Assembly (NCBI RefSeq): GCF_033153115.1
Contig: NW_026889794.1
Span: 4,278,001 to 4,342,000 of the forward strand
Origin: Saccostrea echinata
Lineage: Eukaryota
Length of the DNA stretch: 64,000 nt
Direction of reading: 5' to 3'
Position 1 is the first letter of the stretch; every line of letters starts with the position of its first letter. The notes below the pieces were generated by a model. It worked only from the letters and a program-made list of their open reading frames with translations. It was not told where the DNA came from and did no database searches. Positions 5,901-62,820 of this stretch are shown in pieces. The position numbers and the translations under genes were made by a program.

Positions 5901-8406
5901 TGAAAAGTAAACTTTATATAAATGCCAAAAATTTTTGGTGTTTCTTCATACTTTATGTAATTTCAAATCAAGTTTAATTCAGACTGTATTTTATATATAT
6001 ACATGGATGTGAAAGGTAATGTACATGTATGTCTTACAATCCTTCACAAATCTCCAGGCAGTAAATGAATTTAAGAAATTTGTAAACTTGACCAGATTTC
6101 TTTGTTTTACTATGACAGGAGAGGCGATGGAGCAAGGTCTTCGAGACTGTTGTAGGTCGATACGTATTGGAAAAATCCTCATCCAGAGTGACGAGGACAC
6201 ACACGAGGCCAAGATTGTATATGCCAAACTCCCTCCTGATATTGCTGACCGCAAGGTGCTCCTAATGTACCCCATCTTGAGTAAGTGTGGTATAACACCC
6301 TGTTGTTGGAAAAATGGATATTTTTCTAGGCTCACCAAGTTTTTAGTTAGGACTACATGGAATCATCTCAATGATTTCCCCCATAGGAAAGCCTGACATA
6401 GTGATCCGACATGTTAAACCATCAGTGATTTGTAGCTGAGTTAAGGCTTTTGTTGTTACATGTATTTTGTACTGGAAAATTCTGTGAAACACCTATATTG
6501 TATGAGGTTTACTGTTAGCTGTATGACCATTGGCTAACATTGGCTGAGGGTAACCTTGATGGACTATTATATAAATAGTGCACGTTTTTGAGGGTAACAG
6601 TTGAAATTGACACCCCAAGGAAAACCATTGTCAACCGACGCGTCAGCGGAGGTTGACAATGGTTTTCCGAGGGGTGTCAATTTCAACTGTTACCCTCAAA
6701 AACGTGCACCATTTATTTTATTATACTGAATGTCTTATTGATTTCGGATGTCATAAAAAAATTCGGAGATCGTCGTTAAGTTCACGCTTAGAAAGCTTTC
6801 AAACTCCCCGCTTCTATTTTTCTCAATAAGAAAGCTTCGGAAAAGATTTACCAACCTCTTTATAGCTTGTTTGCTACTCAAAAAGTCCTTTATCATCTAA
6901 AGTTTGCACTCGCAAGGATGTTTCGTCTGTCGTTTGTTGTTTTCAAGTAAGCTTCATCGGACGCAAGCTTTTAATGAAGTCGTTTATGCTGCTTCTTTCA
7001 AACGCACAACTGACGTTTTGAGAATTCTACGGTGAACCGTACGCGCATGATTTGAACGCATGTGATATTTTCGTAATATTACCCGTTGCTAAGTGTGTTG
7101 CTAACGCTGAGGGTAACATTACGGATAGTTAAATGCGTCTAAACCAATCAGATTTTAGTATTTAACATGAAAGTATAATAAAGTATGATATTGTTCACTT
7201 CAGAAGAATATCTGACTCTCTAGTATAGATCACAGAAAATGATTATAGTACATGTACAGTGTATGTCTCAGAGTTTCTATTCTTTATGGGGAAAGTAATA
7301 ATTAGCACAGTCATGAGTATAAACATAGTTTTAACGTGTGTAATATTCAAATTGTTGTCCTATAGTATCTTATGCCCTTGAGATGGGAAAAAACAGGATA
7401 TAATGGGTACATGTATAATTTTCTAATTGGCTGTGTAATAATCACCTTGTTCACAAATTTAACACCATACACATACCTATTCTTAAAGTCATGAGACAGA
7501 GACTTTACAAAAGATGAAGGTCTCTTGTTGTGCTAAGATCAAAGATTGAGTATAGTTTTGCTACAATAGGAATTTCACACCCTCTTAAGTTATACAGAGA
7601 TATATAATTATTGAGAAAAGGTCAAGGTTTTCAGTTTGGCCAAAGTCATACTTTTTTAAGTTTTAAAGACCAGATTCAAATTTGCATCCATTGGATCTTC
7701 ACACCATCTGGAACATTTTATTTTTGTATCTTACCAGGTACAGGGAACACTGTAGTAAAGGCCTGTGCAATACTCACAGACCACAAAGTACCGGAGGAAA
7801 ATATCATCCTATTGAATCTCTTCACAACTCCACAGGGTAAGCAAAATACATGACAAAGTAATAACGATAGTATTCAATGTTAGTAAAGAACTCAAGTCTT
7901 AGCTCCAACCAGCTTGTTATCTTATTAGTTGCTAATTTTCAAATTTATCAATCTCAGGGTTTTAGTATTTATTTCTGTTTTGTTTCAGCTATAGAAAAAG
8001 CACAGGATTTTCACATTATTTATTTTTCACGTATATATTAAAAAAATAACCCCATACCTTGTAAATAACTTTAAGGTATGGGGACGGGTTAATTTTTTCA
8101 ATAAGAAAAATATGTGACAACAAGTGCCTGTGGTATAGGCTCATTGTTATGCTATACAAACTTTGTAGAATATAAAATTTTGTTTGATTTTCAAACTGAA
8201 TAGATAAACCATTGGTTAGCCCTGTATTTCTAGATACATAATTTATGATAATATTATAACTGCATTTATCAGAGACAAATCTTACTCTTTCTATTTCAGC
8301 TGTTCGCTTGGTCCAGAATAAATATCCAGAAGTGACCATCTTGACATCAGAAGTTCACCCTGTGGCACCTAATCATTTTGGACAGAAGTATTTTGGTACA
8401 GAATAA
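2923..8406 (+). CDS. UPRT: Uracil phosphoribosyltransferase homolog, 7 coding exons, 224 aa
   Basis: Exons 2923-3053, 4931-4973, 5347-5416, 5777-5839, 6119-6280, 7738-7836 and 8300-8406 (675 nt, all GT-AG, in frame). Motifs: [94 protein letters not shown]. Confidence 0.95.
3610..3828 (+). mobile_element. 3'-terminal fragment of a Penelope-like retroelement (structured repeat copy A), in UPRT intron 1
   Basis: Homologous to 63681-63891 (+) and to the 3' end of the RT-bearing fragment at 57340-57918 (-). Shared core: CAGGGGATGCxTACTCCTCCATGGCACCTGATCxCACCTCTG. Confidence 0.7.
6571..7182. mobile_element. Non-autonomous element with a 146-bp terminal palindrome plus an adjoining short-TIR segment (superfamily uncertain, possibly Crypton-type)
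   Basis: Near-perfect inverted arms at 6571-6636 and 6651-6716 around a 14-nt loop. The following segment is bounded by tttattatact ... agtataataaa (about 6717-7182). Lies in UPRT intron 5. Confidence 0.65.
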
Positions 8407-11723: not shown

Positions 11724-13372
11724 AACTAGAAATATGTCCATAGGACATGAATGCCCCGCCAAGGGTATATTAGTAATGCAACATTTTAACACAAATTGAG
11801 AAAAGTGAGGTCAAGGTCAAAGGAAAGGTCAAGGTCAAAAAATATTGCTGCAGTTGAATAGCTTACATCAGTATGTATCAGCATATGACGTTTGATTCAG
11901 AAACTAATTTAAGAAAAGTGAGGTCAAGATCAAAGGAAAGGTCAAGATCAAAAAATGTTGATGTAGTTGAAAAGGTTACATCAGTATGTATTAGCATATG
12001 AAGTTTGATGAAAATATTATGAATGGTTTCTTTAAAACTGAGCTAAACACTAATTTAAGAAAAGTGAGGTCAAGGTCAAAGGAAAGGTCAAGGTCAAAAA
12101 ATATTGATGCAGTTGAATAGCTTACATCAGTATGTATCAGCATATGAAGTTTGACACTAATTTAAGAAAAGTGAGGTCAAGGTCAAAGGAAAGGTCAAGG
12201 TCAAAAAATGTTGATGCAGTTGAAAAGGTTACATCAGTATGTATTAGCATATGAAGTTTGATGAAAATATTATGAATGGTTTCTTTAAAACTGAGCTAAA
12301 CATTAATTTAAGAAAAGTGAGGTCAAGGTCAAAGGAAAGGTCAATGTCAAAAAATATTGATGCAATTGAATAGCTCTCATCAGTATGTATCAGCATATGA
12401 AGTTTGACACTAATTTAAGAAAAGTGAGGTCAAGGTCAAAGGAAAGGTCAAGGTCAAAAAATGTTGATGCAGTTGAATAGCTCTCATCAGTATGTATCAG
12501 CATATGAAGTTTGATAACACTATCTTGAATGGTATCTTTAATACTGAGCTAAAAACTTATTTAAGAAAAGTGAGGTCAAGGTCAAAGGAAAGGTCAAGGT
12601 AAAAAATATTGATGCAGTTGAATAGCTCTCATCAGTATGTATCAGCATAAGAAGTTTGACACTAATTTAAGAAAAGTGAGGTCAAGGTCAAAGGAAAGGT
12701 CAAGGTCAAAAAATGTTGATGCAGTTGAATAGCTCTCATCAGTATGTATCAGCATATGAAGTTTGATAACACTATCTTGAATGGTATCTTTAATACTGAG
12801 CTAAAAACTTATTTAAGAAAAGTGAGGTCAAGGTCAAAGGAAAGGTCAAGGTAAAAAATATTGATGCAGTTGAATAGCTCTCATCAGTATGTATCAGCAT
12901 ATGAAGTTTGTTAAAAATATCTTGAATGGTTTCATTAAAACAGAGCTAAACATTAATTTAAGAAAAGTGAGGTCAAGGTCAAAATAAAGGTCAAGATCAA
13001 AAAAATGTTGATGCAATTGAATAGCTTACATCAGTATGTATCAACATATGAAGTTTGATAACACTATCTTGAATGGTATCTTTAAAACTGAGCTAAACAC
13101 TAATTTAAGAAAAGTGAGGTCAAGGTCAAAGGAAAGGTCAAGGTCAAAAAATGTTGATGCAGTTGCATATTCCTCATCAATATCTATCAGCATATGAAGT
13201 TTGATAAAAATATCTTGGATAGTTTCTTTGAAACTGAGCTTTGAACAGAGCTAAACGCAAAGTGTGACGGAAGGACAGACGGAAGGACGGAAGGACAGAA
13301 GGACGGAAGGACGGAAGACGGACATGACAAACACTATATGCCCCGGCCATATTCATGGCGGGGCATAAAAAA
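11724..13372 (-). mobile_element. Helentron-associated non-autonomous element (HINE) with internal 146/107-bp tandem array, copy 1
   Basis: One end is AACTAGAAATATGTCC...ATGCCCCGC. There are 11 internal repeat units, then a (GGAA/GGAC)n microsatellite and the terminal hairpin ATGCCCCGGCCATATTCATGGCGGGGCAT followed by an A-run. Same family as 17702-18718. Confidence 0.85.
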
Positions 13373-13627: not shown

Positions 13628-15440
13628 CTATAGAGTGCTTTTGTTCTCTACTCCTAGTATTTCGTTCTGATTATAAACACTTTCCTCCATCTGTAAGTAC
13701 ATTGGATACTTGTCAACCCCGCGACATTTAGCTTTATGCCGCTGTAAATGGTATTTTGTGTAGTAGTTTTTGTCACATAACTCACAGTGAAAGTTCTTCT
13801 GTCCAGTGTGAATAAGAATGTGTCTTTTGTAGTTTTGCTTTTTAGTAAAGGTCTTTTCGCAGGACTCACACTGAAAAAGACCAGATTTCGTATGGATTTT
13901 CTCATGGAGTTTTCGATCTGTGTCCCGGTTGAACGTTCTTTCACAAAATGTGCACCTGAGTTTTTCCACTTTATGAATTCCCATGTGAGACTCCAAATGT
14001 GCCTTTTGTCGAAAAGATTTATGACACAATTCACATTGAAAATTTCTTTCACCTGAAAAAAGATACATAATTTCAAACCTGCTTCTATAAAATACACAAA
14101 AGTATACGCTTCAGCCTATCAAACTGAGAAATCTCTTCTTTTTTTTCTACATACTTTACATAGTGCATGATTGTTTTATTGATTGAATTAAGTATTATGT
14201 CTCAACTACATACAAGTAATGAAACAAGAGGCCCAGGGGCCACATCGCTCACCTGAGCACTCTGCCTAGGAAAAAGCAGAAATCAGTTCAGTCTTGAAAA
14301 GTTTTGTTATAAAAGTGGTTTGAGGGGGGAGGGGGGGGGGGTTATTTTGAACTTGAATCTATACTTCAAAGGGATGCTTTTGAATTAATATGACAAATAA
14401 TGGCTATGCTGTTCTTAGGAAGACAATTTTTATTGATATATCATTTATATTCTTTTGTATAACTATGATCCCCTGTTATGGCCCCTCTATTCTCCTGGGG
14501 GTTCATGATTTGAACAAAATTTGAATCTACATTACCTGAGGATGCTTGCATTTAAATATGACTAATTATTGCTTTGCTGTTCTTCAGAAGAAGATTTTAA
14601 AAGGCTTGCTTTTTCCTATGTATTCCTATGTAAAACTTTGATTGCCCATTGTGGCCCCACCCTACCCCTGGGAGGTCATGATTTAAACAAACTTGAATCT
14701 ACACTACCTGAGAATGCACCCATAAAAAAAAAACAATCATGGCTTTGCTGTTCTTGAGAAAAAGATTTTTACAAATTTTTCCTAAGGCCCCACCTTACCC
14801 CCAGGGTCATGATTGGAACAAACTTGAACCTGCACTACTTGAGGATGCTTCCATGTAAATATGACCAATCATGGCTTTGTTGTTCTTGTGAAGAAGATTT
14901 TTACAGATTTTTCCTATGTATTCTTATTTAAAACTTGGATCGCCCATTGTGGCTCCACCCTACCCCCGGGGGTCATGATTGGAACAAACTTGAATCTACA
15001 CTACCTGAGCATGCTTCCATATAAATATAACCATTCATGGCTTTGCTGTTCTTGAGAAGAAGATTTTTAAAGAATTTTCCTATATATTCCTATGTAAAAC
15101 TTTGATCGCCCATTGTGGCCCCACCCTACCCCCGGGGGTCATGATTTGAACAAACTTGAATCTACACTACATGAGGATGCTACTACATAAATATAACCAA
15201 TCATGGCTTTGCTGTTCTTTTTAAAGAATTTTCCTATATATTCCTATGTAAAACTTTGATCGCTCATTGTGGCCCCACCCTACCCCCAGGGGTCATGATT
15301 TGAACAAACTTGAATCTACACTACCTGAGGATGCTTCCATATAAGTTTCATATTTTCAAGCACAGTGGTTCTTGAGAAGAAGATTTTTAAATGATGCCAT
15401 TAATTTTTCATGAATTCATGATTATCTCCCCTTGGAAGAA

Positions 15441-15517
<77 letters not shown>

Positions 15518-15593
15518 CCAGTAGTTCTGGAGAAGAAGATGAAATTGTGAAAAGTTTACAACAACAACGACAACAACGCCGACGACGACGACA

Positions 15594-15655
<62 letters not shown>

Positions 15656-18600
15656 TGTTCTCGTAGAATTCCAATATGTATTTCAGTTAAAAAGGGAAAT
15701 AACTCTGTATTAACCTGAGTGCTTACAATTTTCTAACACACTATAAGAAACTCCGTTTTACAAAATACAGAAGTATAGCAGATCATAAACATGGGAAATT
15801 ATTGAATCAGGTAATTGTAACTGCTCTCTGCAAATAATGAGTTTTGCTACGAAGGGAAGTCATGAACCATTTAATATTCAATTGCATATTTACATAGAAT
15901 GTTTCATCAGTTGCAAAAATTATTAGTCTTGTGTGGATTTCATACTGATGTATCATGCATACAAATTAATGCTAATAATGGTTGGTTTACAGAATACATT
16001 GTATAACATGGAAATTTATAGCCTTACCTTTGTGGACTGCTAAGTGTTTTTTGAGATTACTGTTACTGGCCAGCACTTTCTTACAAAATGGACAAGTGAT
16101 GAGTTCTAAGGGATCGGATTTTTGTTTCCTGGATTTGGATTTCAGACAGAAAGGATCATTATCATCCACTGGATTACAGAGGGCTTCCTTGTGTATGTCT
16201 GCAAGATGCTGCCTCAGACCCTGCTTTTTACGGAACATTCTGGCGCAGACTGGGCACTCGTTGACACTTCCTGGTTTGGGAATCAGTGAGAAACCTGTGA
16301 GAGATCAAACAGAAATATGTTAATGTACCTATACTAATTATATATTTAGAAATATTACTTCGAGATTACACCATTATTTTTAGGAAAAAAAATTGTTCTT
16401 ATACATGTACATCAGGATATATATGGATTAATTTATTCATTTTGGAGATTCTTTATGCACTGAATGATCATTTTTAGCAATGCACTGCATTATAAAATGT
16501 ACAAGGTCTGTTTACAAATTTTTCAATGTATACTGATGAAAATTTGTATGTACACATCACCTTGTGTGATTTATGACAAAGTGAAATTCAAAAAAATGAA
16601 TATTTAATGCTTATACACATACAAATATCAATTCTAAAAACTTATATTTGCCCTCATTTACTACTAATTTCAATTTTTTCTCAACCTAATTTACCATTGT
16701 GTCATCATATTCTGCACTGATGATGATCTGACAAATGAAATGCAAGTTTTATTAAGGAGTTATGAGCAAAATTTTTAAATAGAGTACATGCACTCAAAAA
16801 ATATGATACCAGTATTTCACATTATGAAATGGTTATTAGAATGACACATTTATGAAGTAATTATATTCTTTATCAGGTATATACATGTAACTGTGTACTT
16901 TTTAAGTTTCTAAACATTTACCACAAATCACAGCATACTCCTTGGAGAACCAGTACAAGAGTTCTTCCCCTTCTCTGATGTCTCTTTTGGCAAAGAAGAA
17001 CAACGACCTTCCCACCTGATGTACGATCAAGTTCTGCTCCACGATGTTCTGAGCAGGGCGTATGAATCTCAACCAATTACTAAGTTCTTCATCCTCAGTT
17101 GTAATATAGTGACAATCATTTTCTGCCATTACCTGAAAGTAAATCCAATTCAGCTAATATTGTTGGGATACTACCCAGTAAATAAACTGTGAATGTGTCA
17201 TCATCCATATACTGAATATATGAAGTTTAAAAGTCATCTGATCCTTAAAGACATAAGATGAAGTGATTTAAATAAGAACTTTTGTTCAGATGAGCTAATA
17301 AATATTCACAAGCATAGGTGTGTATTTTGAAAATTAGACAAATCCACATTAAATTCCATGTCCCACGATAATGAAACAACTTAGCCCAAAGTCAAAATCC
17401 ATAAATTGACCTTATTAGTATAGTACATGTAGTCAAATAGTCCAAACATAAATGTTATTCAAGATTGCATCACCAAGGTGTGTATATCTGCCAATTCAAA
17501 ATTTCATTTACACAGCATCTGAAAAAATAAGGTGTCTACCTTTAGCCATTACTCATCTGTGTTGCAAATACATTGCATAAAGTTAAAAGATACTTGTGTT
17601 ATTGTGTCACATAAAAGTGTTGACACAACGAAGATGGGTGGATGGACAAACATAGGGATTATTATAGGGCACCCACACTTTCATGCTGGACCCTAATTAA
17701 TACTAGAAATATGTCCATAGGACATGAATGCCCCGCAGAGGGTATATTAGTAATGCAACATGAAAATTTGTATTAGTGTATGAAATTTGATGAGAATATC
17801 TTGAATAGTTTCTTTAAAATTGAAATTGAAATCTAAAAAGTTGGATATAGATGATAAGTTCTCACCAAATTATGTATAAGTGCATAAACTTACACAAATA
17901 TATCTTAAATGGTTTCTTTAAAATTAAGCAAAATGCAAATCTAAGAAAAGTGAGGTCAAGGTCACAAGAAAGTTCAAGGTCAAATGTTTTAGAAGCAATT
18001 GAATACTTCTCACAAATATGTATCAGCATATTTAAGTTTGATAAAAAAATTTTGAATGGTTTATTTAAAACTGAGCTAAACACTAATTTAATATAAATGA
18101 AGTTAAGGTCAAAGGAAAGGTCAAGGTCAAAAAATGTTGATGCAATTGAAAAGGTTACATCAGTATGTATTAACATATAAAGTTTGATAAAAATATCATG
18201 AATGGTTTCTTTAAAACTTAGTAAACACACATAAAGAAAAGTGAGGTCAAGGTCAAAGGAAAGGTCAAGGTCAAAAAATATTGATGCAGTTGAATAGCTT
18301 ACATCAGTATGTATCAGCATATGAAGTTTGACACTAATTTAAGAAAAGTGAGGTCAAGGTCAAAAAATGTTGATGCAGTTGAATAGCTCTCTCATCAATA
18401 TGTATCAACATATGAAGTTTGATAACACTGTATTGAATGGAATCTTTAAAATTGAGCTAAACACTAATTTAAGAAAAGTGAGGTCAAGGTCAAAGGAAAA
18501 GTCAAGGTCAAAAAATGTTGATGCAGTTGCATAGCTCTCATCAACATCTCTCAACATATGAAGTTTGATAAAAATATCTTGGATAGTTTCTTTGAAACCT

Positions 18601-21600: not shown

Positions 21601-23898
21601 TATTTTTGAAAATTATTTGCGGTAGGATCATTTTGTGATTCGTGATTTTCAGCGATAACTGTGAAGCAACGCTTAAGGAAGATAGTTGCTACGGAACATA
21701 CATCTTACCTTGATCAGGATACAACGTGTTACACTGTACTTATATTCTGTGCGTGATTAATCTAATTTCCTAAAAAGAAGTTTAACAAAATGTTGTTACT
21801 CGTAGAGCGTATTTCCTATGAAAGAAAACAACGAACTCGATTTTTAAATGAACGGTATAATCCAGAAATGCTACCAAGGAATTTCGAATGCAAAACATTG
21901 TCAGTCAGGTGCGTTGCAGAAATCAAGTGCTCAATTTATTGTTTTATCTATAAATTAATGTAAACTAAATAAATATGTACATTTGTGTGAGAAAAATTCA
22001 CTTGCCCGATCGGACAAGTATGTCGATGATTTCACTTGCCCGAACTGAGAATTTACTTGTCCCGGGCAATCGGACAACCGTTAATGTCGATCCCTGTTAG
22101 TGTTCTAATTCATAACTACCACTAAAATATTACTTTATCACAGTATTATACATGAAAAATACAAAAGATTTAGAACTTAATCAACATAGTGCTAAATAGT
22201 ACATCATTTATATTTTAATGCCAAACTTTAAAAGTACTAGCACATACAGAATGTACAAGTACTGTAAAAAAAGAATACAGTGAAACAAACCTGCCACTTG
22301 TGTATTAGAGGTTGACTGCAGTAGGCCCTCCACTGCCATAGTGTCAGAAGATGTAGTGACTGCATAGAACTGCTCCAACTGATCCCCACTGATCAGCAGT
22401 GACTGGGCAGGGTTTTGAATTGAGCCCAGGGAGGGATCTTGTTTAACAGAGATCATTTGATTGGCTGTTTGTCCCAGGGTTGCTGTATCAGCATAAGAAA
22501 CTTGGTTGTTGATTAGCTGTCTTAGGTAGGTCACCTGTGAGGCATCAATTGGCTGAGAATGTGATGTCTCCGTGACAATAGATGATGGGGCTGAAGTTGA
22601 TTGGTTGGATGAAGATGATGAGATTACTGAAAGAGAGGACGGAATGCACACTGGAATACTGGGTACAATTGAGGCCAGAGCAATGGTAGATCCAGCTGAC
22701 TGTGTGATGGATGGAATTGCTGGTAGAGACACATTACTTGATGGAACTGGTTGGACAGAGCCATCACTGTTCAATAAATGACAAATGTCAACACTTTGCG
22801 AGACTGGAATAATGTCCGAATTTGCTGTAGTTTCACCAGATGACTGGTTAAGAATGTTTAAAAGTGCCTGACATGTTGCACTGTTTTGTAAGGACGGATT
22901 AGTCAGGATTAGATTTATCATACTCTGAAGACCAGCTATCTGTGCATCAGTATTAGAATTTGGATTTTGCAAAAAACTGCCATCAATACCCTCCAACTGA
23001 TCAGCATTTTCTATGCCTGACACCTCTAGTTGGTTGGCCTGGGCATTTCCCTGAGCTAGGGTTGCCAGCTGTGATAACAGGGCACTTGTCTGGTGACAGT
23101 TTGCTGTAGAAGAAGAGTCTGGGGGAAACACTCCTGAAAGGACAGACTTATCAACAGGTATGACTTCTTGGATTGCTTTGATGCTGTTCCCCTCTATCGT
23201 TGAATTATGGGATTGTTCAGATGTACTCACAATAGATGAGGTAGCACTTGGTGGTGTGATGGGGGAAAGAAGCTGACGAATTGATTGCAGTCCTGTGTGT
23301 CGAATCAATGACTTCAGTGGTGGCAATGTTCCTGCAAGGTATTATATATCAAAGTCATGAGTTCTTAGTGTTCACATAATGTGTTACCAAAGGCTATAGG
23401 CGCTAAGAAAACATCTTTCAAAATACTACATTGTATGTTTCAAAAGTAATTTTTTTTACCCTGTGTACTGTTTTGTTTATCTCCCATTCCTATAGAGACC
23501 ATTAGTGGAACAGTTTGAGATAAACTTGTCATAACTGTTGACGACGAAGGAACTGGAACGACTAAAAAAAAATATATCAAGATATGGGTGTCCATACTTC
23601 AATCCCTTTTACTTTGAATTATTTTATTATTTATATATTTTATATATTCAAATTAAAGAGTATTTTAATCAGGTGTTTGTTTAAAAGTAGGAAAGTTTAG
23701 TTATTAGTACTCAACTGTTAAATATTGAACAAATCAGAGAAATTTTGAACCTGTGGTATGTGTGGAGGCTGGTTCATTTTGTCCGTACAGTCCAACTACA
23801 CTCTGCCCGAACGCCCCCATGGCTGCACTGGTTAACTGGTCAATATTGATAGCCGACAATGTGTCCGTCATCGAGTCGTTGGATTCCGCTGTAGTCAT
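13628..23898 (-). CDS. PR/SET-domain zinc-finger protein (PRDM4-like architecture: long low-complexity N-terminus, zinc knuckle, PR domain, 6 zinc fingers), about 895 aa
   Basis: In-frame GT-AG exons: 23751-23898, 23460-23561, 22291-23331, 20452-20592, 20270-20305 (least certain), 19803-19856, 19212-19361, 18729-18841, 16922-17132, 16028-16294, 13628-14052. Motifs: YCVTCD...DKVIPSRARLSMP (knuckle); TKFGPLIG, SNWLRFIRPA..EQNL and GEELLYWFS (PR); five C2H2 fingers and one C2HC finger. Confidence 0.9.
14222..15655 (-). mobile_element. Helentron/HINE element carrying about 166-bp satellite monomers (Cg170-like), in the last PRDM intron
   Basis: One end is AAACAAGAGGCCC...GCTCACCTGAG. About 7 repeats of GATTTGAACAAACTTGAATCTACACTACCTGAGGATGC, a (CAA/CGA)n microsatellite, and the terminal hairpin AGCTCACTTGAGCCTTCGGCTCAGGTGAGCT followed by AAAAA. 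Confidence 0.88.
17702..18718 (-). mobile_element. HINE element, copy 2 of the 11724-13372 family, in a PRDM intron
   Basis: Same ends (ACTAGAAATATGTCCATAGGACATGAATGCCCCGC and ATGCCCCGGCCATATTCATGGCGGGGCATAAAA) and the same GAGGTCAAGGTCA units, but with a shorter array. Confidence 0.85.
20016..20222. mobile_element. TA-flanked MITE (Tc1/mariner-type target site)
   Basis: TA+CTGTTTACAGGGAAATTTTCGC ... GCGAAAATAACCCTGTATACAG+TA, with internal repeats of GGGCGAATTTAAAAC. Confidence 0.75.
21281..22096. mobile_element. Non-autonomous TIR element with CAGGG ends (hAT-like)
   Basis: CAGGGATAGACATTAAC ... GTTAATGTCGATCCCTG (17-bp imperfect TIR), with subterminal ACTTGCCC/ACTTGTCC repeats at both ends and a flanking TTAGT direct repeat. 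Confidence 0.8.
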
Positions 23899-38900: not shown

Positions 38901-41900
38901 TTAATTATTCAATTGCAATATCCAACACATCAATCACAGAGCCTGTAAATTAAGGCAAAGCTCTAAAGGTCCGTGAATAATACATGACGCCCTCTCAACC
39001 CCCTTGTCGATCTGAACGACATCAAACCAAGAGCCGCGGCCTCTGGGAACAACGACTGCAGCGCCACTCTAACTTAATGGGACATTTCGCCGCTGTATCA
39101 ATCCTGGAAATTCCTACTGGACAAGTTTTCTCGATTGTGGTTGCTAACTGAAGAAATTTTGTCACGTTCATTTAATTCCAGATATGGAATTCTACAAATC
39201 GTCTGTTTTTCCCCGGAAATAATCCATGAAATATTTTATTCCTCTTAACTGGAAATTGACTAAGTCAAGTAAAGGTTTACTTTTCTTTCCACAGTGCGAA
39301 GTGATACCTGGTTATGGCTTCCGTCGGGGCGGTTACCAGTGCGTTTGTAAGCCCGGATATTACTACCCATGGTGGCATGACGGACCTTTCCTTGGGATTG
39401 AAATTGAGCAGGCTACCGGGACCGAATACGACGCTTGGTTTGATTGTCTGGCTGTGGAAGGTAAGTATTGACATTTATAATAAAAATGTGTGTCTTTTTA
39501 AAGTCAATCATTTTTTTTCAAAAAATAAGCAGTGACATGCTGTCTTTGACTGTAGAACAAATGGTGCCTCCCAATGAGATGCCAAGCTTTGTGGAAAGAA
39601 AGAAAAGATCTTCCTCTCTTCAGGACCGTTTCATTGACGTCATTTCTGCTGCTGACTCTAGCCCGCGTGTTTCAATGGGAAAACTATCTACTACAGAGAA
39701 TGCAGGGAAAAGACAAAAACGTTCTGCCTCAAAGAAAGTCAACAAGTTGGTGGCAAAGAGATCTGCATTTAAAACAGTCAAACAAAGAATGCAGGAGCGA
39801 AGATTTATACCTCGGTACCCCGGAGAGAAGAGATTTATGAGGCATAAACGAGATCTATTTGATCAGGAAATGTACTCAAGAATGGAAAAGATTTTATACC
39901 GAAAGCAAACCACGAATAAAGAGAACTGCATGACAAAGCCAGATTATGAGTTGTACTTACCGGGTGATGCAGGATATGGCGCTGACAAACGATTCGAAGC
40001 CGAGGCTCGCACTGCATTGAGATTGGCACACTTTCTGTGTGATTTCCTTCAAAACATCGACGAATATGAAGACTTCGGAAGTGTAAGAGGAGACAAGAGA
40101 TTAAATGAGACACACATATTTGGTGAAGTTCTCGCAAATGTCATGAGCAACTTCAAAATTCTAGGCAGTGGCGTTTTCTTTGATCGCTACAAGTTCCGAA
40201 TGTCGCCGCCTATTAATAACACTGATCCCCGATTTGTACACGGTATCACCCGGGAGTACTTCGGACCATTTGCATACACATATATGTCTGCAGATACCGA
40301 CGGATTGGAAAAGTTCCGTGCTTTAGACTATGCTGGTCTGAAATCTCCATATACCCAAAAGAGGTGGTTTAGAGACATGAAGGCAAGATGGCAAACGAAC
40401 TTTGAGGGCCTGAAACAATACACCGCCAAGCCTATGGTTCGTTCTGACCCTAACGGAACTAGCTTAGTGAGATGGGAGCACTACCCATTAAAATATTTTG
40501 CTCCAAAATATGAACACGGAGAATGGCTGAGACCTACCTTTAAGTGTGATGGAATGGTAGATGAGTGGGTCGTGACATACATAGCACCATTCTTTGGAAC
40601 GAATGCATTAAAGACTCGGCTAGAATTTCAGTAAGTCCGGACATATATTATTAGTCGAAAGCAGTTTTTACTTTTGTATAATATTTAAGTATACCGGTAC
40701 TAGCGTAGTAACATTTATTCTATTTCTCTTTCAGTGGAGTGGTTACAGTTGATGTCAAGTTAGACTTCTTAGAAATCCATCAGTGTCCTGGAGATTATTC
40801 GGTGGCAAATGCATTCAAAAACACAGCGCGTTGCCACTTTAAATCGCAATATGTAAGTGAAGCAAACCTTCATGTACTGTTCAAACACAAATAACTGGCG
40901 ATATTCACTATAGTTTCCACCTAGAAGTTATTAATGTATTCTTAGATATTTTTGTATTTATTGCAACTATAATCTTAGTATGCATGAAGTAGCTTCTCTT
41001 TATTTATAAACTTTCTCTACTGCTTTATTTTCTCTAAGCGGAAGTTTTTCCTGTTGGTCGTTCTTGGCACTGGCGGAATAATCACGTGACAAGTATAGTG
41101 GTTGTTCCCTTGTGTCAATAATGAACTCGAGGAAAGTCGCCATATTCTTAAACAGCCTTCAATGTATATTTCTCGGTACTATATCTACTGTTAACAAAAT
41201 GTATTTTTAAACAGTATCTCTCCCTAAAATATTACTTTAATTTCTTTTATCATCAAGAATTTAGTTTGCATGCAAAGATTATTTTTTTCACCCTTCTCAT
41301 TATTTGCGTCTTTCAAAAGCTTCAAGTTTCAGTCTTTTTTTGTTTTATTTCGCCGCATGCACGAAATGCATTTGTAATCTTACGATAGATGCAAGCTCTC
41401 TTTTGAAAGATAAATACGTCAATCTACGAGTGTTATGATGTCTAAAGAAGGAATTTAATAACAACTCGCAACTCAACTTTGAAGTATTTTTCTTTTGCAG
41501 TGTATACCTTTACCTCTACAAACCCCCACCCAGCGCTACCTCCGAGGAGGGTACAAGTGCGAGTGTCGTCAAGGTTACGAGTACCCCTTCAATGACCTCA
41601 GCTGGTTCTTCGATGGTCAGATGATGGAAGAGGAATATAACAAAATGTTACGAGGAGAGCCCAATAGGTATCGTCTGCTGATGACGCGCTTATGTTTGCT
41701 GATTACGTATTTATGTTTCATATTTAGAATAATCAAAACAATTGAAAATATATACTTACCATGGGACAAACAAAGTACTTGAGATGCCTTGGAACTACGT
41801 GCATCCTAATCCTACCAGACCAGTAGGATTTTTTTTATCATGCATTTGCATTATGTATAACATTTTAAATTTCTTATTACAGATACGACACGCTGAAATG

Positions 41901-41988
41901 CAGAATAGCTGGAGCGGCCTCCATTACATTGAGCTGGGTGCTTCTGTCAATATCTTCTTTTATCTATCTTCTCTGGACTCGTATCTAA
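35946..41988 (+). CDS. Secreted/GPI-anchored protein with two tandem GPR158/GPR179-type ectodomain modules (Cache + EGF-like), no 7TM; 7 exons, about 903 aa
   Basis: Exons 35946-36898, 37300-37426, 39295-39460, 39556-40630, 40735-40852, 41501-41667 and 41883-41988 (2712 nt, GT-AG, in frame). Signal peptide MGFLRCAFTCVILALFFVWTGSG. Module 1: WSKPYFDCGRSNKWIVTASAP...DINPC...GTARC...GFRRGGYQCVCKPGYYYP. Module 2: WLRPTFKCDGMVDEWVVTYIAPFF...EIHQC...NTARC...RGGYKCECRQGYEYP. Ends CRIAGAASITLSWVLLSISSFIYLLWTRI*. Confidence 0.88.
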
Positions 41989-44192: not shown

Positions 44193-46103
44193 CATGTCCA
44201 TGCATGTGAACAAAGTAAACCTCTAGATGGTTGAACTCTCTATGTCCTTGCATGTGAACAAAATAAACATCTGGGAGGTTGACATATCTATGTCCTTGCA
44301 TGTGAACAATGTAAACCTCTGGGAGATTGACTTCTCTATGTCCTTGCATGTGAACAAATTAAATCAATGAGAGCTTGACATATCTATGTCCTTGCATGTG
44401 AACAAATTAAACCACTGGGAGATTGACATCTCTATGTCATTGCATGTGAACACAATAAACTGCTGTGAGGTCGACCTCTCTATGTCCTTGCATGTGAACA
44501 AAGTAAACCTCTGGGAGGCTGACCTCTCTATGTCCTTGCATGTGATCAAAGTAAACCTCTGGGAGGCTGACCTCTCTATGTCATTGCATGTGAACAATGT
44601 AAACCACTTGGAGGTTGACCTCTCTATGTCCTTGCATGTGAACAAAGTAGACCTCTGGGAAATTGACATCTCTCTGTCCTTGCATGTGAACAATGTATAC
44701 CTCTGGGAGTTTGACATATCTATGTCCTTGCATGTAAACAATGTAAACCTCTGGGAGGCTGACCTCTCTATGTCATTGCATGTGAACAATGTAAACCACT
44801 GGGAGGTTGACCTCTCTATGTCCTTGCATGTGAACAAAGGCCTCTGGGAAGTTGACCTCTTTATGTCCTTGCATATGAACAAAGTAAACCACTGGGAGGT
44901 TGACATCTCTATGTCCTTGCATGTGAATAAAGTAAACCACAGGGAGGTTGACCTCTCTATGTCCTTGCATGTGAAAAAGTAAATCTCTGAGAGGTTGACC
45001 TCTCTATGTCCTTGCATGTGAACAGAGTAAACCTCTGGAAGGTCGACCTCTCTATGTCCTTGCATGTGAACAATGAAAGCCTCTGGGAGACTGACCTCTC
45101 TATGTCCTTGCATGTAAACAATGTAAACCACTTGGAGGTTGACCTCTCTATGTCTTTGTATGTGAACAAAGTAGACCTCTGGGAGGTTGACATCTCTTTG
45201 TCCTTGCTTGTGAACAAATTAAACCTCTGGGAGGTTGACATATCTATGTCCTTGCATGTGAACAATGAAAACCTCTGGGAGGCTGACCTCTCTATGTCAT
45301 TGCGTGTGAACAATATGAACCACTCAGAGGTTGACCTTTCTATGTCCTTGCATGTGAACATAGTAGACCTCTGGGAGGTTGACATCTCTTTGTCCTTGCA
45401 TGTGATCAAAGTAAACCACTGGGAGGTCGACCTCTGTATGTCCTTGCATATAAACAAAGTAAACCACTGGGAGGTCGACCTCTCTATGTCCTTGCATGTG
45501 AACAAAGTAGACCTCTGGGAGGTTGACATCTCTATGTCCTTGCATGTGAACAATAAAAACCTCTGGGAGGCTGACCTCTCTATGTCCTTGCATATGAAAA
45601 AGTAAACCACTGGGAGGTTGACATCTCTATGTCCTTGCATGTAAACAATGTAATCCACTTGGAGGTTGACATATCTATGTCCTTGCATGTGAACAATGTA
45701 AACCGCTGGGAGGCTGACCCCTCTATGTCATTGCATGTGAACAATGTAAACCACTGGGAGGTGACCTCTCTATGTTCTTGCATATGAACAAAGTAGACTG
45801 TGGGAGATTGATATCTCTATGTCCTTGCATACGAACAAAGTAAACCACTGGAGGTTGACCTCTCTATGTTCTTGCATATGAACAAAGTAAACCTCTGGGA
45901 GGTTGACCTCTCTTTGTTCTTGCATGTAAACAAATTAAAACAACTGGGAGGTCAACCTTTCTTTGTCCTTGCATGTGAACAAAGTAATCCTCTGGGAAGT
46001 TGACCTCTCTATGTCCTTGCATACGAACAAAGTAAACCACTGGAGGTTGACCTCTCTATGTCCTTGCATATGAACAAAGTAAACCTCTTGGAGGTTGACC
46101 TTT
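44193..46103. repeat. 48-bp minisatellite, about 40 copies
   Basis: Unit TATGTCCTTGCATGTGAACAAAGTAAACCTCTGGGAGGTTGACCTCTC. It accounts for all the repetitive ORFs between 44137 and 46132. Confidence 0.95.
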
Positions 46104-46644
46104 CCATGGTCGACCCCTGGATAGTTAGTCAAACCTGAACATCACAGGTACAAAGAAATATAACTGCAATAATGTAGCCTTCTCCGATTTTTTTTTTTTT
46201 TGGGGGGGGGGGGGGGGAGAGGGCTACAACTACTTTGGATCTCCGTAATGGTTCAAGTGCTGGAGTGATTCACTGCCGCACAGATTTCGGCTCAAATTAT
46301 CAGTAAGTGGGTATTTTATTAACATATCTTACCTGAACTCATAAAATGTAGTTATGCAAGACATGAATTGATCCAAAAATATACAGAACAATCAATATAT
46401 CGGTTATTTTTCATGTATGTCAACATCACAACTTGAATTTATCCGCCATGTTTACTGACCTTGATCGATTTTATTTTGGGACAACCAATGAGAATTCGGG
46501 ATCTAGGGGAGCGGATCGTTCAGGATTTCCCTTATTTAAAGCATAAATATCACTATTTTATGAAAAAAATATCACATGGAATGGTTTTATTCATCGATGT
46601 TTAGTGATAACATACAGCACAAACATTTATCAATACCGACATTT

Positions 46645-50469: not shown

Positions 50470-52810
50470 TAGTATTGTTAAAAAAAGTAGCGATGGCAAA
50501 CTATTATAACAATATAGAGACCAATCTTATCGACGCAAGTATCAAAAGTTCAAAAAATTACGAAGGTCAGGTCCGAAATACCACCGCTGCAGGATATTAC
50601 AGAAAATGGCGATGTGCATATTTTCATATAGGGATATTGACAAAGTTGAGGCGTTAAACAACTATTTTGCTTCGATTTCGTCGTTGCATGATGTTGAACA
50701 AGCACTACCAGTTTTTTCTTTATTGTGTAATAGTGTTTTTAATAGTATTGAAATAGTTGAGCAAGACATTATTGATATAATTTTTATTCTCTCTGTGAAC
50801 AAGGCCATAGGACCAGACAATATTAGTCATAAAATGTTAAAAGCTACTATTTTTAGCGTCTCATTTCCCTCGTGTATTCTGTTTAATAGATTTTTAAGAG
50901 AATGTGTATTTCCTAAACAGTGGAAAGTAGCTAATGTACTTCCTGTATTTAAAAAAGGTGACCCATCATTATTATCAAAGTATAGACCTGTACCATTATT
51001 AAGCTGCGTAGGTAAAATTATGGAGCGAGTCATTTTTAAATATGTTTATAATTATTTTCATTCAAACAATCTTTTTTTTATAAATATCAGGCTGGTTTTT
51101 ACCAGGTCATTCAACTGTTTATCAGCTTATTGAGACATACGATTACATAGCTAAAGCTATATATGAAGGAAAACACTGTTGTATGGTTTTCTGTGATTTG
51201 TCTAAGGCATTTGATCGGGTATGGCATAAAGGTCTTCTATTTAAGTTACAAACTTATGGTGTTAGTGACAAAATATTGCTATGGTTTCAAAGTTATTTAG
51301 ATTTAAGGACACAATGGGTATTGCATAGGAATACTATGTCTAATTTTAAACCTTTACATGCTGGAGTCCCTCAGAGGTCTGTATTGGGACCACTTTTATT
51401 TTTGACATATGTCAATGATGTTGCTGAAAATATGTCGAGTTTAAGCAGGTTGTATGCTGATGATAATTCTTTACATAACTGTTCTGAAAATATACATGAT
51501 ATTCAAGTAGGATTGAATTATGATTTAAATCAACTTGAACAGTGGTCTAAACAGTGGCTATTGAAATTTAATCCTTCGAAAATCAAAGCTATCTTTTTTA
51601 GCACTAAGAAAAATGTCGATCTACCAAGGCTTAAATTTCAGGACTGTTATTTAGATTTTGTATCATCACACAACCACTTAGGTATTCTCTTTTCACACGA
51701 CCTTACATGGTCAGCGTACATTGATTCTATCGTTGCCAATGCATATAAAAAAATAGGTCTACTTAAAAAAATGCAGTTCAGGGTAAGTGCTAAAACTTTA
51801 TCTCTTTTATATACTACTTTTATAAGACTTCAGTTAGAATACGCAACTGAAGTTTGGTGTGGGTGTTCTTGTCAAGATTCCGAAAAACTAGAAAAATTAC
51901 AGTTAGCAGCAGCAAGAATAGCCACTGGATTAACTTCTTTGGCATCGCGAGATTCTCTCTATTTTAAAACTGGATGGGAACCACTTGCTATTAGAAGAAT
52001 GTCCAAAGTAAGAACAACTATGTATTAAATTTTTCATAATATGGTACCCGAGTATCTGAAAGAAATATTTCCAAACATTCGATCACACGAATCAAATTAC
52101 GCAACAAGACAATCACAAAATTATTGCATCCCTAAGTGTAGATTAAACATTTATAAATCATCTTTTATCCCAATTGCAATAAGGGAATGGAACTCTTTAC
52201 CACTAACAAGACAATCCACTACTATAGGTTCCTTCAAAAACTGTATAAACTCTCAAAAAACACCTACTCCTGCCTTTTTTTCTTTTGGTGTTCGTTACTG
52301 GAATGTAATTCATACTAGATTAAGACACAATTGTGTTCTGAATAAAGATTTATTTAGGTATAACATCATTGACAGTCCATTATGCACTTGTGGAAAAATA
52401 GAAGACGCATATCATTACTTTTTTTCTTGTGCGAAATACACTGTCCCAAGAAACGATTTGTTTAATGCTATTTTTAGAATGATTAATTTACGTATTGTAG
52501 ACACTCACGTACTGTTATGGGGAGATGATTCGATTAGCATTTCTGAAAATGAAAGTTTATTTTTAAATGTGCAATTGTTTATTAAGAGATCTGGTCGTTT
52601 TTGAATTTATATATTTAGATTCATTTGTACAACTACATCAAATCAATTTTGTACATGCATAACCTATGTAAGATAATCATATTGACCTTTGGTTCAAGTG
52701 TAGTTTAATTTTTTAACATTATTTTTCGTTCTAAGTTTTAAGAACGTGTGTCCGATCCTTTTGTTGTAATATCTAAACAATAAAATATGTTCAAATCAAA
52801 TTAAAAAAAA
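50470..52810 (+). mobile_element. 5'-truncated CR1-clade LINE (reverse transcriptase ORF2), inactivated
   Basis: Motifs KAIGPDNI, WKVANVLPVFKKG, YRPVPLLS, FCDLSKAFDRVWH, GVPQRSVLGPLLF, LYADD and a C-terminal CxC...EDAYHYFFSC. Frameshift in the T-run at about 51072-51079 and a stop at 52026-52028. The 3' end is AATAAAATATGTTCAAATCAAATTAAAAAAAA. Confidence 0.92.
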
Positions 52811-53808: not shown

Positions 53809-55350
53809 TCACTTCAGATATTGGATTTTCTTAACATTTCCACTATAATGCTCTGCAACAAACATATTGTCACTGTTATCCACACATAAACCATATGGAT
53901 TTTTCAGATCACAGTTATTTATAAAAGAGAGGAATCGTCCATCCTGGTCTAGTATGTGGATACAGTGGTTATTATGGTCTGCTGTAAGGATCTGACTCAG
54001 ACTATCTGTTGTTATCCCGGGAGGTTTAAAAGGTTTGTTCTTGGTAGTAGAAGGATGGCCAGTGTTTCTAAATCGGAGTTTTGCAGACTGATTGACTACC
54101 ACTACAGCACCAGCTACACAGTCAGCCACACAGATATCCAGGTTTCTATTCTCAGTGATGTACTTAATTTTGCAATTTCCTGAATATAGAGGTTTACCCT
54201 TGACATCAAACTGGATGGTTTGTTTCTCTGAGGAACCTGAGTAACGGACAACTTTAGATTGTGTTTTATCATCACTGCACATAGTAACCAGGAGATCATC
54301 AGTTGAGGAGGAAACACAGAGGTTTGTAGGTATCCAGTTCTGTAATCTGATAACCTCCTCTATCTGCCCATTCTTCACTTTATTCACAGTCTTTGTGTTC
54401 CATGCAACATACACTAGATCCCCATCACTTGTCAGTGTTATATCACTTGGCAATTCCTCTATTTTTGTACTGATTGTTTTGATGAGTGAACCTTCATTGT
54501 TAAAGCATTTCAAATCACCGACTCGGTAAGCACTTGTGCATTTCTTTTTCACTAAGACAAGTAATACTGCGGAGTTTTTCATACCCAGTATTTATAGTAG
54601 TGATGAGTTTAGGTTCTTCCAGCAGTTCTCTATTTGGTGTCTCTGGTTTCTTCAGTTTGTAGCCATTCTCTTCTTTTGTTGTGGATAAAGGTGTCAAAGA
54701 TCCAAAAAACTCGTAAATCTGTTCTGTAAAATGTATTGTCTTTGGACTGAACGTTGGTAATGAAACTTGAACTTTGGAAGGAAGTTTCCTCAATTCTTTG
54801 TTTTTAGAACTGTATTCCATGGTCATGGATAATTCATTTGATTCCTCAATTCTATTCAGGTTATGTAGTGTTTGTCCAATAAGATTTTGAATCTGTTTGA
54901 TATCATTCAAATGCTTTTTTAAAATGCTCATATGTTTTACTTTCATCTCTCCAATTTCGGCTTTCATTTTGTTGACAATGGTGTCGATTTCTCTGTGCCA
55001 TTTTCTCCATGATTTGTTACTGCTGTTGTACAAGATTTCCATATTCTCCATCCAGTCTAGCTATTTCAGTTTGTATTTCAGTTAATACACAAAGAACACG
55101 CAGAGGTGTTGCATTCTTTGCAATGAAATTTATATCTTTTTGTTTGATGTGTTTTGCACTTAGGATAAATCAAGGTTGAATTTCTCTGTTGGAATGGGAC
55201 CATCTTATGTTCGTCATAGTCATCAAAAATATGTTTTCCTACACAAGAAATGCATAGATTGACATAACAGTAATCGCAGTGCATCTGCACTATAGCGGTC
55301 TCTCAAAGGTCACAACGGACGACATCTTGGGCACTCTTGCTGGGATACAT
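53809..55350 (-). pseudogene. Disrupted TRIM-like B-box/coiled-coil/NHL gene (bivalve-expanded family)
   Basis: Starts MYPSKSAQDVVRCDL*ETAIVQMHCDYCYVNLCISCVGKH (TGA in place of a B-box Cys). The second B-box CKTH...CKEC...CSLC is cut by a deletion/stop at about 55078. Coiled coil at 54515-55051, a frameshift at about 54530, then NHL repeats (YITENRNLDICVAD, GITTDSLSQILTAD, PYGLCVD). Confidence 0.85.
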
Positions 55351-60199: not shown

Positions 60200-62820
60200 G
60201 AAGAAAAACAATACTTTGTGTAGTTTATGCCTAAAACCCTTATTTGTTGGGTAGATATGTAATACATGTCCACTAAAGCTTGACATAGAATAGATGTGGT
60301 TTAGTTTAACTAAATCCACCAGAAACTTACAAAATAGTAAGATTTATATACCTACTACATTATAACCTTATAAAGATAAAACATGGTTTATAATATACCC
60401 TGGAGTACTAAAACCTTTTACAGAATAGACATTTTATAGTGTATATCTACTATAGACCCTTATATTATTTTTTTTTTTTATTTATTTATAAATATTATAA
60501 TAAAAATTACATATAGTTTATATGCGTTAATATAATAGTCATGGCGTGGTGTGTATCCACTGGAGCCTTACGTAGAATAGATCTTATGAAATATACGAGG
60601 GTTGTTAGAAAAGTTCGCGGACAAGTTCTATTGTGAGCGCGCTATTTGCATGAAATCAGTAAAACTCTGCAGGTAAAAATTATACGTATTTTCCAATTAA
60701 TATGCCAAAATTTGGTGTTTTCCGATGATCTTTAAAAAATAAACAGCGAAATTATTTAGATAAAATATGCTTCACGGAGCATGTTACTTTTTCGCACTTT
60801 TACATTTCAGAGACATAATTTTGAAATTAAAAATTGCACTGTTGTAGCGCATTAAGATTTATTATATTTCACCTCTCGCTAAGGTATTTATGAAACGTCA
60901 TTTGGCGAAATTTTGAATTAAATTGGAGGAGTTATGACTATTTTATCACTAATTATAGATGATCAATGCGTAAAAACATAGCCAAGAAATGGTAACGTCA
61001 TTGAACGTCTTGGAGCACCGAGCTATTAAAAATATGTGTGCAGACAGGGAAATGCCCGAAAGAGACTAAAATGTTTTTAGATTCTGTTGGGGATGGCTTA
61101 CACGTATCTAGTACCAAAGTGTTCAAGTGGTAGCAACTTTGTAAGAATTAATGGAAGGATGGGCATTTTTGATTATCAACTCCTGCGATACCCCAATATC
61201 CTGCTCATCGCATGGACGTTGCGCCAATGGATTTTGCATTGTTTCTCATAACTGATCGCTGAACTGCGTAGACATTGTTTTAAAGATCTCACTAATATCC
61301 GATACGCCACAAAAGACATTAAAAAATATATAACATGTCTTGATATACTTATTTAATTTTTAAGTCAGAAAAGGACAGAAAAAGTCTATAGAAATGAAAG
61401 ATATTTACAACTGTGAAAAATCTTCACAGGTCTGGAATCAGGTTGTCACGTCGCCTACCGTCATAAAACGTCAAGTGATTGCTCCCTGAATCCGATGACC
61501 GCGCAGTAAAAATCGAAGTATATTTTCAAAATGTTAGTAAATGGACATGATCTTTTACATACTAATGAGCAAAAGATAAGAATTCAATTAGACATACGTC
61601 ATTCTTCAAAGTTTACAATATATTTTCCTTAAATCAACTGAAGGTGTCCGCGAACTTTTCTAACAACCCTCGTATATTAACTATACTAACTACACGCTTA
61701 CAGTTATAAATAAAGTATACAAACTACAGTCTTAAATAGAATAGTCATAGTGTAGTGCATACTAGAACCTTACATAGTTACACAGAATAGGCATGCTGTA
61801 ACGTATATATACCTACTGGAAGTGCACATAGAATAGGCATGGTGTAATATATACCGAATAGAGCGTTACATAGAATAGAAATGGTGTAGTGTATACCGAA
61901 TAGAGCGTTACATAGAATAGAAATGGTGAAGTGTATACTGAATAAGGCGTTACAGAGAATAGGCGTAGTGTGATGTATACCGAATAGAGCGTTACATAGA
62001 ATAGAAATGGTGTAGTGTATACCGAATAAAGCGTTACATAGAATAGGCATGGTGTAGTATATACCAAATAGAGCGTTATATAGAATAGTGAAATGTATAT
62101 ACCAAACGTAGAATACACATGTTGTAATTTATACGAAACATAGTCTTAAAAGGAATTGACTTTGTGTAGTGCATACAAAAAAGAGCCTTTAAAGGAATAG
62201 ACATTATGTAGTATATACCAGACAGAGCCTTAAAGGGAATACACATTGTGTCGTGTTAATAGAATAGATCTTTACATAAAATAGACATGGTGTAGAGTAT
62301 ATCAGCTAAACCTAATACGAATAGACATTGTGTAGTGTATACCAGATAAATCCTTACATAGAATAGGCAAGGTGTAGCGAATATCAACTTACTAAAAAAG
62401 AATAGACATTGTGTATAGTGTATACAACATAGAGCTTTACATAGAAAATACTTAGCGTAGTATACACCAAATAGAGTATTACGTAGAATAGATATGGTGT
62501 AGAGTATATCAACTAAAGCTTGAAAAAGAATAGACATAGTGTAGTTTATACCAGATAAACCTTTGCATTAAATAGACATGATATAGAGTATATCCACTAA
62601 CTAAAATAGGAATAGACATTGTGTAGTGTATACCAAATAGAGCCTTACATAGAATAGACATGATGAAGAGAATAGCCACTAAATCCTCAAAGGAATATAC
62701 ATTTTGTAGTGTATACCAGATAAACCCATACATTAAATAGACATGATATAAAGTATATCCACTAAATCCTAAAAAGGAATAGACATTGTGTAGTGTATAC
62801 GGCATGCATCCTTGAATAGA
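60200..62820. repeat. Degenerate 42-bp minisatellite array, interrupted by a mariner element
   Basis: Unit ATAGAATAGA(A/C)ATGGTGTAGTGTATACCGAATAGAGCGTTAC, best conserved at 61830-62090. Related units occur in inverted orientation at about 58140-58260. Confidence 0.8.
60596..61672 (+). mobile_element. Internally deleted mariner (Tc1/mariner) transposon
   Basis: TA + 28-bp perfect TIR CGAGGGTTGTTAGAAAAGTTCGCGGACA ... TGTCCGCGAACTTTTCTAACAACCCTCG + TA. Transposase relics: CVQTGKCPKETK and STKVFKW (N-terminal HTH), and DVAPMDFALF (degenerate YSPDLAPxDFxLF). Confidence 0.92.

Follow-up and report, generated by a model that had tools for sequence, protein, structure and literature searches.

A doubled GPR158-type ectodomain without a receptor, joined by a predicted cleavable linker, in the oyster Saccostrea echinata and its protostome relatives

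The window analyzed here is a stretch of 64,000 nucleotides from Saccostrea echinata (NCBI RefSeq assembly GCF_033153115.1, contig NW_026889794.1, positions 4,278,001 to 4,342,000 of the forward strand). On its forward strand lies a seven-exon gene (35946-41988) encoding a protein of 903 aa (Table 1). Transcript contigs from all four runs (at most three samples from two studies, with RNA status guessed by the tool and coded contigs carrying no tissue record) spanned all six introns of the gene model, which rules out a wrong-gene-model artifact. The spliced product was 100% identical to record P0131, named as an uncharacterized S. echinata protein. The stop codon falls 28 residues past the last cysteine, and the contigs run on past the coding part of exon 7 as 3′ untranslated region (UTR) to a poly(A)-like end at 43006. 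A 7TM domain encoded beyond the tail was ruled out by this stop codon, the 3′ UTR contigs, and the absence of a 7tm_3 match in a Pfam search of the window protein.

The other features of the window are also given in Table 1. Among these, the NHL-repeat frame overlaps an upstream frame and is one that we take to resemble the TRIM-NHL genes, common in bivalves. A Ser/Gln-rich frame of 377 aa may belong to the C2H2 zinc-finger gene. The tandem repeats are of three kinds: a 48-bp unit, whose 40 copies preserve long open frames on both strands; a family with units of 107/147 bp; and a 42-bp array.

Table 1. Features of the 64-kb window (positions are those of the window; aa, residue numbers in the 903-aa protein)
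Feature	Positions	Strand	Content
Exon 1 (coding part)	35946-36898	+	Signal peptide (about aa 1-23), then the N-terminal helices and Cache/PAS core that make up most of module 1
Exon 2	37300-37426	+	Module 1: last portion of Cache core, first portion of EGF-like part
Exon 3	39295-39460	+	Last portion of module 1, EGF-like/cysteine-rich; final conserved Cys at aa 411
Exon 4	39556-40630	+	Stalk after module 1, entire basic linker, Cache core of module 2
RKKR	39597-39608	+	Furin-type site (aa 430-433); predicted C terminus of module 1
Spacer	39609-39851	+	Basic, 81 aa, low AlphaFold confidence, little conserved; predicted to be removed in pieces
GKRQKR	39705-39722	+	Internal furin-type site (aa 466-471); Gly only in Saccostrea sequences
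VAKR	39750-39761	+	Basic site
ERR	39795-39803	+	Basic site
FIPRY	39804-39818	+	Short spacer motif common to bivalves, annelids, and one nemertean
EKR	39825-39833	+	Basic site
RHKR	39840-39851	+	Last furin-type site (aa 511-514); predicted to make the N terminus of module 2
Exon 5	40735-40852	+	Module 2: last portion of Cache core, first portion of EGF-like part
Exon 6	41501-41667	+	EGF-like/cysteine-rich part of module 2
Exon 7 (coding part)	41883-41988	+	Last Cys, small residues, hydrophobic tail, stop; GPI-type signal
ABC-transporter membrane-domain exon	123-491	-	Divergent from the UPRTase-domain exon
UPRTase-domain exon	6013-6396	+	Divergent from the ABC-transporter exon
C2H2 zinc-finger gene exons	13628-16304, 22208-23341	-	
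BTB/POZ-domain exons	27178-27843, 33198-33875	-	Near-duplicates; upstream tandem gene pair
LINE-type reverse-transcriptase remains	50510-52604	+	Broken, three frames; RVT_1 match
NHL-repeat frame	53809-55060	-	NHL match
Tandem repeats	44194-46108, 11788-13240, 61826-62800		

In order, the protein comprises a signal peptide, two Cache+EGF ectodomains of the GPR158/179 type (modules 1 and 2), and a GPI-type tail, with no 7TM domain; hydrophobic 19-mers were found at its two ends only. By hydropathy, the N-terminal hydrophobic stretch ends near aa 21 to 24. A preliminary description of this DNA had taken DNFDEI as the mature start of module 1, paralleling DLFDQE in module 2, but DNFDEI begins at aa 33 and is not the mature start; the two motifs lie 17 and 25 residues, respectively, ahead of the first conserved cysteine of their modules. 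At the other end, an A-G-A-S consensus after the last cysteine and a tail of 25 to 33 residues were present in 108 of 120 aligned rows. This hydrophobic, GPI-type tail without a cytoplasmic part agrees with the earlier proposal of a surface-anchored module 2, and we predict that the window protein is GPI-anchored and lacks a cytoplasmic tail.

The identity of the modules was apparent from several kinds of search. Pfam detected PF22572 in two stretches of the window protein (E = 1e-46) and no VWA family. A profile of 23 orthologues searched against the PDB matched only GPR158 and GPR179 (five sequences, E ∼1e-13); a PDB sequence search with module 2 alone gave no match. When compared by hhalign with the ectodomains of 7TM-bearing GPR158-like proteins, module 2 aligned over 303 columns (probability 100, E = 3e-41), and its alignment with seven such proteins covered the region from the first helix through the last cysteine. 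A Foldseek search with the model returned GPR179 (E = 3e-10) and GPR158 ectodomains and bacterial Cache sensors as best matches, several of the latter being amine sensors by title. The two modules are also homologous to each other (E = 2e-16, 22% identity). Since the Pfam, PDB profile, profile comparison, and fold searches agree, the protein is, as judged from its sequence, a doubled GPR158-type ectodomain minus the receptor, with a predicted GPI anchor, and the receptor-like ectodomain of the preliminary description is borne out. Each module contains eight conserved cysteines (120 rows). One additional cysteine per module was observed in the window protein, at aa 148 (exon 1) and aa 577 (exon 4); because the former occurs in 52 of the 120 rows and the latter in 4, the two probably do not form a family-wide bridge.

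GPR158 and GPR179 were deorphanized only recently, and their Cache ectodomain has been described as part of a 7TM receptor. Like GPR158 (mGlyR) and GPR179, each oyster module consists of an N-terminal helix, a Cache/PAS core, and an EGF-like cysteine-rich part. In contrast to these class C GPCRs, the oyster protein has two unequal ectodomains per gene with a linker predicted to be cut by convertases, larger insertions in its Cache core, and a GPI-type end in place of the 7TM domain and the cytoplasmic RGS7-binding part. A second comparison is offered by alpha2delta, in which one precursor is cut into two chains and GPI-anchored. Alpha2delta and CACHD1 are likewise Cache-domain surface proteins and gave weak fold matches (Z of 6 to 8); unlike them, the oyster protein has EGF-like parts and lacks both a VWA domain and a conserved interchain disulfide. 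PMC8915833 describes the alpha2delta/CACHD1 architecture as a VWA domain inserted in double Cache domains and gives the bacterial amino acid sensor motif dCache_1AA as YxxxxRxWY plus Y[x27-34]D. Mapped by sequence pattern rather than by structure, the oyster family departs from this motif, the residue two before the Trp being not Arg but Asn in 87% for module 1 and Glu or Lys for module 2.

Between the modules lies the basic linker. The sequence R-x-K/R-R is the furin consensus, and G-K-R is the peptide amidation signal. The preliminary description had noted RKKR, GKRQKR, VAKR, ERR, EKR, and RHKR between the modules; all were found in frame within exon 4, from 39597 to 39851 (85 codons, as described), and the sequence continues directly after RHKR with DLFDQE, where module 2 had been said to start. 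The 903-aa protein has three R-x-K/R-R motifs in total, every one of them inside this 85-aa stretch. Three such motifs in any 90-aa segment had a P value of 0.0013 in whole-protein shuffles and, for the linker, 0.012 when the linker alone was shuffled; the seven plain dibasic sites were borderline once the basic composition of the linker was allowed for (mean, 4.0; P = 0.058). The R-x-K/R-R motif sits at a conserved position in a disordered extracellular segment, and the P1′ residues at the furin-type sites are non-bulky, being small or acidic (S, S, and D). Furin-cut linkers are common, and a cluster of sites is therefore ordinary by itself.

To place the linker in context, we compared it across relatives. 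At E ≤1e-5, 251 family proteins were detected, and among the matches listed (the best 120 of the 251) were molluscs, annelids, a nemertean, a flatworm, an orthonectid, rotifers, and arthropods. Drosophila and Anopheles members are 805 to 810 aa long, and insect members are 70 to 80% identical to one another. The corresponding Atlas cluster, “GPR158/179 extracellular domain-containing protein,” holds 1,026 members and is uncharacterized, and the database names encountered for family members were all assigned automatically (“uncharacterized” or “putative GPCR,” and in some cases a stray transfer). At the level of titles and abstract openings, the literature searched yielded no description of a twin-ectodomain family, and six family locus identifiers went unmentioned in the main texts searched, largely those of non-subscription papers. 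The S. echinata genome itself carries five loci with both modules. The four paralogues of the window gene (genome G000, C54:45777172-45824723, two in tandem; C12:9220009-9229235; and C62:3405067-3410539) are ∼50% identical to it over matched exons, and all four have an R-x-K/R-R site ahead of module 2.

The positions of the end sites were conserved. An R-x-K-R before module 2 was invariant in 23 of 23 mollusc orthologues, in which a basic pair also ends module 1, and [RK]x[KR]R occurred 22 to 24 residues past the last cysteine of module 1 in 25 of 27 orthologue rows, the exceptions being two octopod rows with KKR at this site. Mean identity to the window protein was 63% and 61% for the modules versus 17% for the spacer. 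Over 126 full-length rows (P0033 was left out because it has no cysteine at the anchor column; eight near-identical Rotaria rows were kept), the linker was bimodal: 86 rows had an [RK]x[KR]R site, with a Cys-to-Cys span of 55 to 256 aa, and 40 had none, with a span of 50 to 76 aa. In 67 of the 86 site-bearing rows, the last site was 26 to 27 residues from the module 2 cysteine. Of 90 further scored rows, found with an insect query (P0401 and P0451 skipped), 89 lacked a site and 1 had one. Arthropod members, which share the twin modules and hydrophobic C-terminal tail of the oyster protein, differ from it in a Cys-to-Cys linker of 61 to 76 aa without furin sites.

Trees were built after removal of seven of the eight near-identical Rotaria rows and were midpoint-drawn, without an outgroup. 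Thirty-eight of the 40 site-less rows formed one clade holding all named arthropods, and the remaining 2 (P0040 and P0041) nested among bivalve sequences; a tree grouping the site-less rows together was rejected (p-AU = 8e-8, 47 rows). On these trees, the site-less state arises at least twice. P0040 and P0041, paralogues that evolve fast, have a linker of 50 aa without sites and, ahead of the hydrophobic tail, an additional stalk rich in Ser/Thr. The earlier question of whether the basic sites and spacers are conserved in orthologues has a split answer: the end sites were kept in position across Spiralia, but the spacers varied in both sequence and length. Given the bimodal linkers, family members work as a single chain and are predicted to work in two-chain form as well. 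Conservation of the end sites supports furin-type cleavage at the linker ends, as proposed in the preliminary description. Retention of furin sites across Spiralia also implies some effect of cleavage that a short linker left intact would not provide, a point that speaks against a mere tether.

We next consider how the two modules are arranged. AlphaFold2 run with 118 sequences on P0001, an oyster protein 87% identical to that of the window, gave a pLDDT of 89 and a pTM of 0.86, with low confidence in the linker only; with 23 sequences, the values were 55 and 0.41. The Atlas model of the identical protein had a pTM of 0.76. By rough arithmetic, a pTM of 0.51 to 0.56 would be expected for independent modules and 0.72 to 0.86 for packed ones. 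From these overall pTM values, which come from single-chain models with the tether present, both modules are predicted to lie in one frame, packed together. Packing is as expected if their pairing resembles that of GPR158, which dimerizes through side-by-side ectodomain helices that bury 1,806 Å2 in a large, hydrophobic interface, as described in PMC8611064. From the models we infer an intramolecular version of this ectodomain dimer. Because each module has its own eight cysteines, no conserved disulfide would join the halves after cleavage, and the pair would be non-covalent.

The putative pocket differs between the modules. In module 1, the motif P-Y-F-D-C was nearly invariant (P in 100%, Y in 98%, and D in 100% of 120 rows). 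In module 2, Y and D were retained in 30% and 17% of 79 site-bearing rows versus 80% and 95% of 41 site-less rows. Since module 2 lost the motif more where a cut is predicted than where it is not, the halves appear, from these sequences, to have specialized where the linker is cut. In both the alignment and the profile, the module 1 Tyr and acidic residue align with Y269 and E271 of GPR158, which we take to be glycine-pocket residues. GPR158 binds glycine or taurine in its Cache domain, according to PMC12834959.

Taking these observations together, we favor, at slightly better than even confidence, the reading that the linker serves as a disposable tether, excised while the halves remain paired as a GPI-anchored surface heterodimer. 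Furin-type convertases would cut at both linker ends and inside the linker in the secretory pathway, after the tether had ensured 1:1 cofolding of two unequal halves. Modules 1 and 2 would then stay non-covalently paired in a heterodimer shaped like the GPR158 ectodomain dimer. Being GPI-anchored, the heterodimer could signal only through partners and may serve as a coreceptor or ligand-holding surface protein, with the better-conserved Cache-pocket motif in module 1. Cleavage in vivo, persistence of the pair, and the coreceptor or ligand-holding role are what we infer from site conservation, predicted packing, and motif retention. In proinsulin-type precursors, a C-peptide spacer between basic sites joins two chains. 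The oyster protein similarly has a variable spacer between conserved basic sites joining parts predicted to stay together; however, there is no homology, and its chains are membrane-anchored, folded domains of 400 aa that are not disulfide-linked.

The main rival to the tether reading is that cleavage, whether immediate or induced, sets module 1 free and leaves module 2 on the membrane; module 1 would then be a soluble Cache protein acting as a ligand trap, a carrier, or a paracrine signal. Conservation of both end sites, the lack of a conserved intermodule disulfide, and the apparent specialization of the halves speak for release, and since the half that would lose its covalent anchor is the one that better keeps the pocket motif, this rival stays alive. 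We nonetheless consider it unlikely: arthropod orthologues and P0040/P0041 work with their modules joined, tight packing is predicted by the models, and the GPR158 ectodomain interface is large and hydrophobic (PMC8611064). The preliminary description had envisaged a precursor split into a released module 1, a surface-anchored module 2, and small peptides. Cleavage at the linker ends and an anchored module 2 are retained here as predictions; release of module 1 is doubtful, since relatives keep both modules in a single uncut chain and the modules are packed together in the predicted structure; and the peptide products are not sustained.

The spacer itself bears on a further reading. After exclusion of 20 rows without two well-spaced sites or a terminal site, the 79 site-bearing rows of the tree set gave 59 spacers. 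A FIPRY-type pattern occurred in 27 of the 59 (shuffle mean, 0.7), although the pattern was picked after viewing the alignment and the sequences are related, and S-x-R-L/V occurred in 15. Such recurring motifs suggest some function beyond tethering. The spacer may be an inhibitory or chaperoning prosegment that docks through short motifs and whose removal switches the dimer on, as two partly confident spacer helices in the AlphaFold2 model and a positive net charge (median, +0.16 per residue) would allow. However, spacer length ranges from 21 to 184 aa, P0045, P0064, P0036, and P0039 have a single site and almost no spacer, and the FIPRY-type pattern was absent in rotifers, cephalopods, and most gastropods. 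A prosegment thus seems quite improbable to us, although it is compatible with a tether and does not exclude it.

Far less credible is the proposal that neuropeptide-like products, bioactive and in part amidated, are derived from the spacer. The signal peptide identified by hydropathy and the seven dibasic sites flanking peptides are in keeping with it, and the one Gly before K-R, shared with a second Saccostrea record, could give a 32-aa amide. However, G-K-R was found in 1 of 59 spacers, the window's own, which is below the shuffle mean of 2.8, and the Gly is absent in the Magallana record and in the other oyster rows compared. The spacer is unconserved, no repeated or conserved peptide was found among the spacers, and an Atlas search with the linker alone (aa 425 to 520) gave no usable match. 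By convertase and carboxypeptidase rules, a cut after RQKR followed by trimming would leave a Gln end, not Gly; because the candidate amide Gly lies inside the furin site and K-R-Q would remain after it, amidation would need a second cut after K-R. The amidated peptide was accordingly rejected on conservation, and the neuropeptide reading fails. Separately, a Gly directly precedes the first basic cluster in 14 of the 79 site-bearing rows, mostly from the annelid clade and rotifers (P0043-P0056, P0065, P0082, P0094, and P0096) and not in the window, so that in those proteins trimming could leave module 1 itself with an amidated end. Equally hard to credit is a linker left uncut in vivo as a basic flexible loop, such as a proteoglycan-binding patch: the spacer is strongly basic (pI 10 to 12) and the GPR158 ectodomain binds a heparan sulfate proteoglycan (PMC9027133), but molluscs, annelids, and rotifers all keep an exact R-x-K-R whose spacing from module 2 is constant, even though its neighbors drift, and the P1′ residues are small or acidic.

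The protein is therefore not a GPR158/179 receptor (no 7TM), not an alpha2delta/CACHD1 protein (no VWA), and not a neuropeptide precursor. Building on the tether reading, a wider and admittedly speculative proposal is that the protostome family consists of GPI-anchored, preassembled GPR158-ectodomain heterodimers, made as two chains in Spiralia and as one in arthropods. These would bind small amines or amino acids, acting as coreceptors or as ligand traps, and excision would let the pocket-bearing half leave or swap with the ectodomain of a true GPR158 receptor.

The idea of neuropeptides from a receptor gene does not hold, and the part worth following is a twin ectodomain that lacks a receptor and whose predicted cleavable tether is confined to certain lineages. 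An ectodomain without its receptor, doubled in one gene, has been kept from oysters to flies with no function described in the papers searched. Its linker is a clean natural experiment, cut (by prediction) in Spiralia and uncut in arthropods, and the fly orthologue makes function testable by genetics. A soluble, well-predicted twin domain could also be easier than the receptor to use in finding ligands of the Cache pocket.
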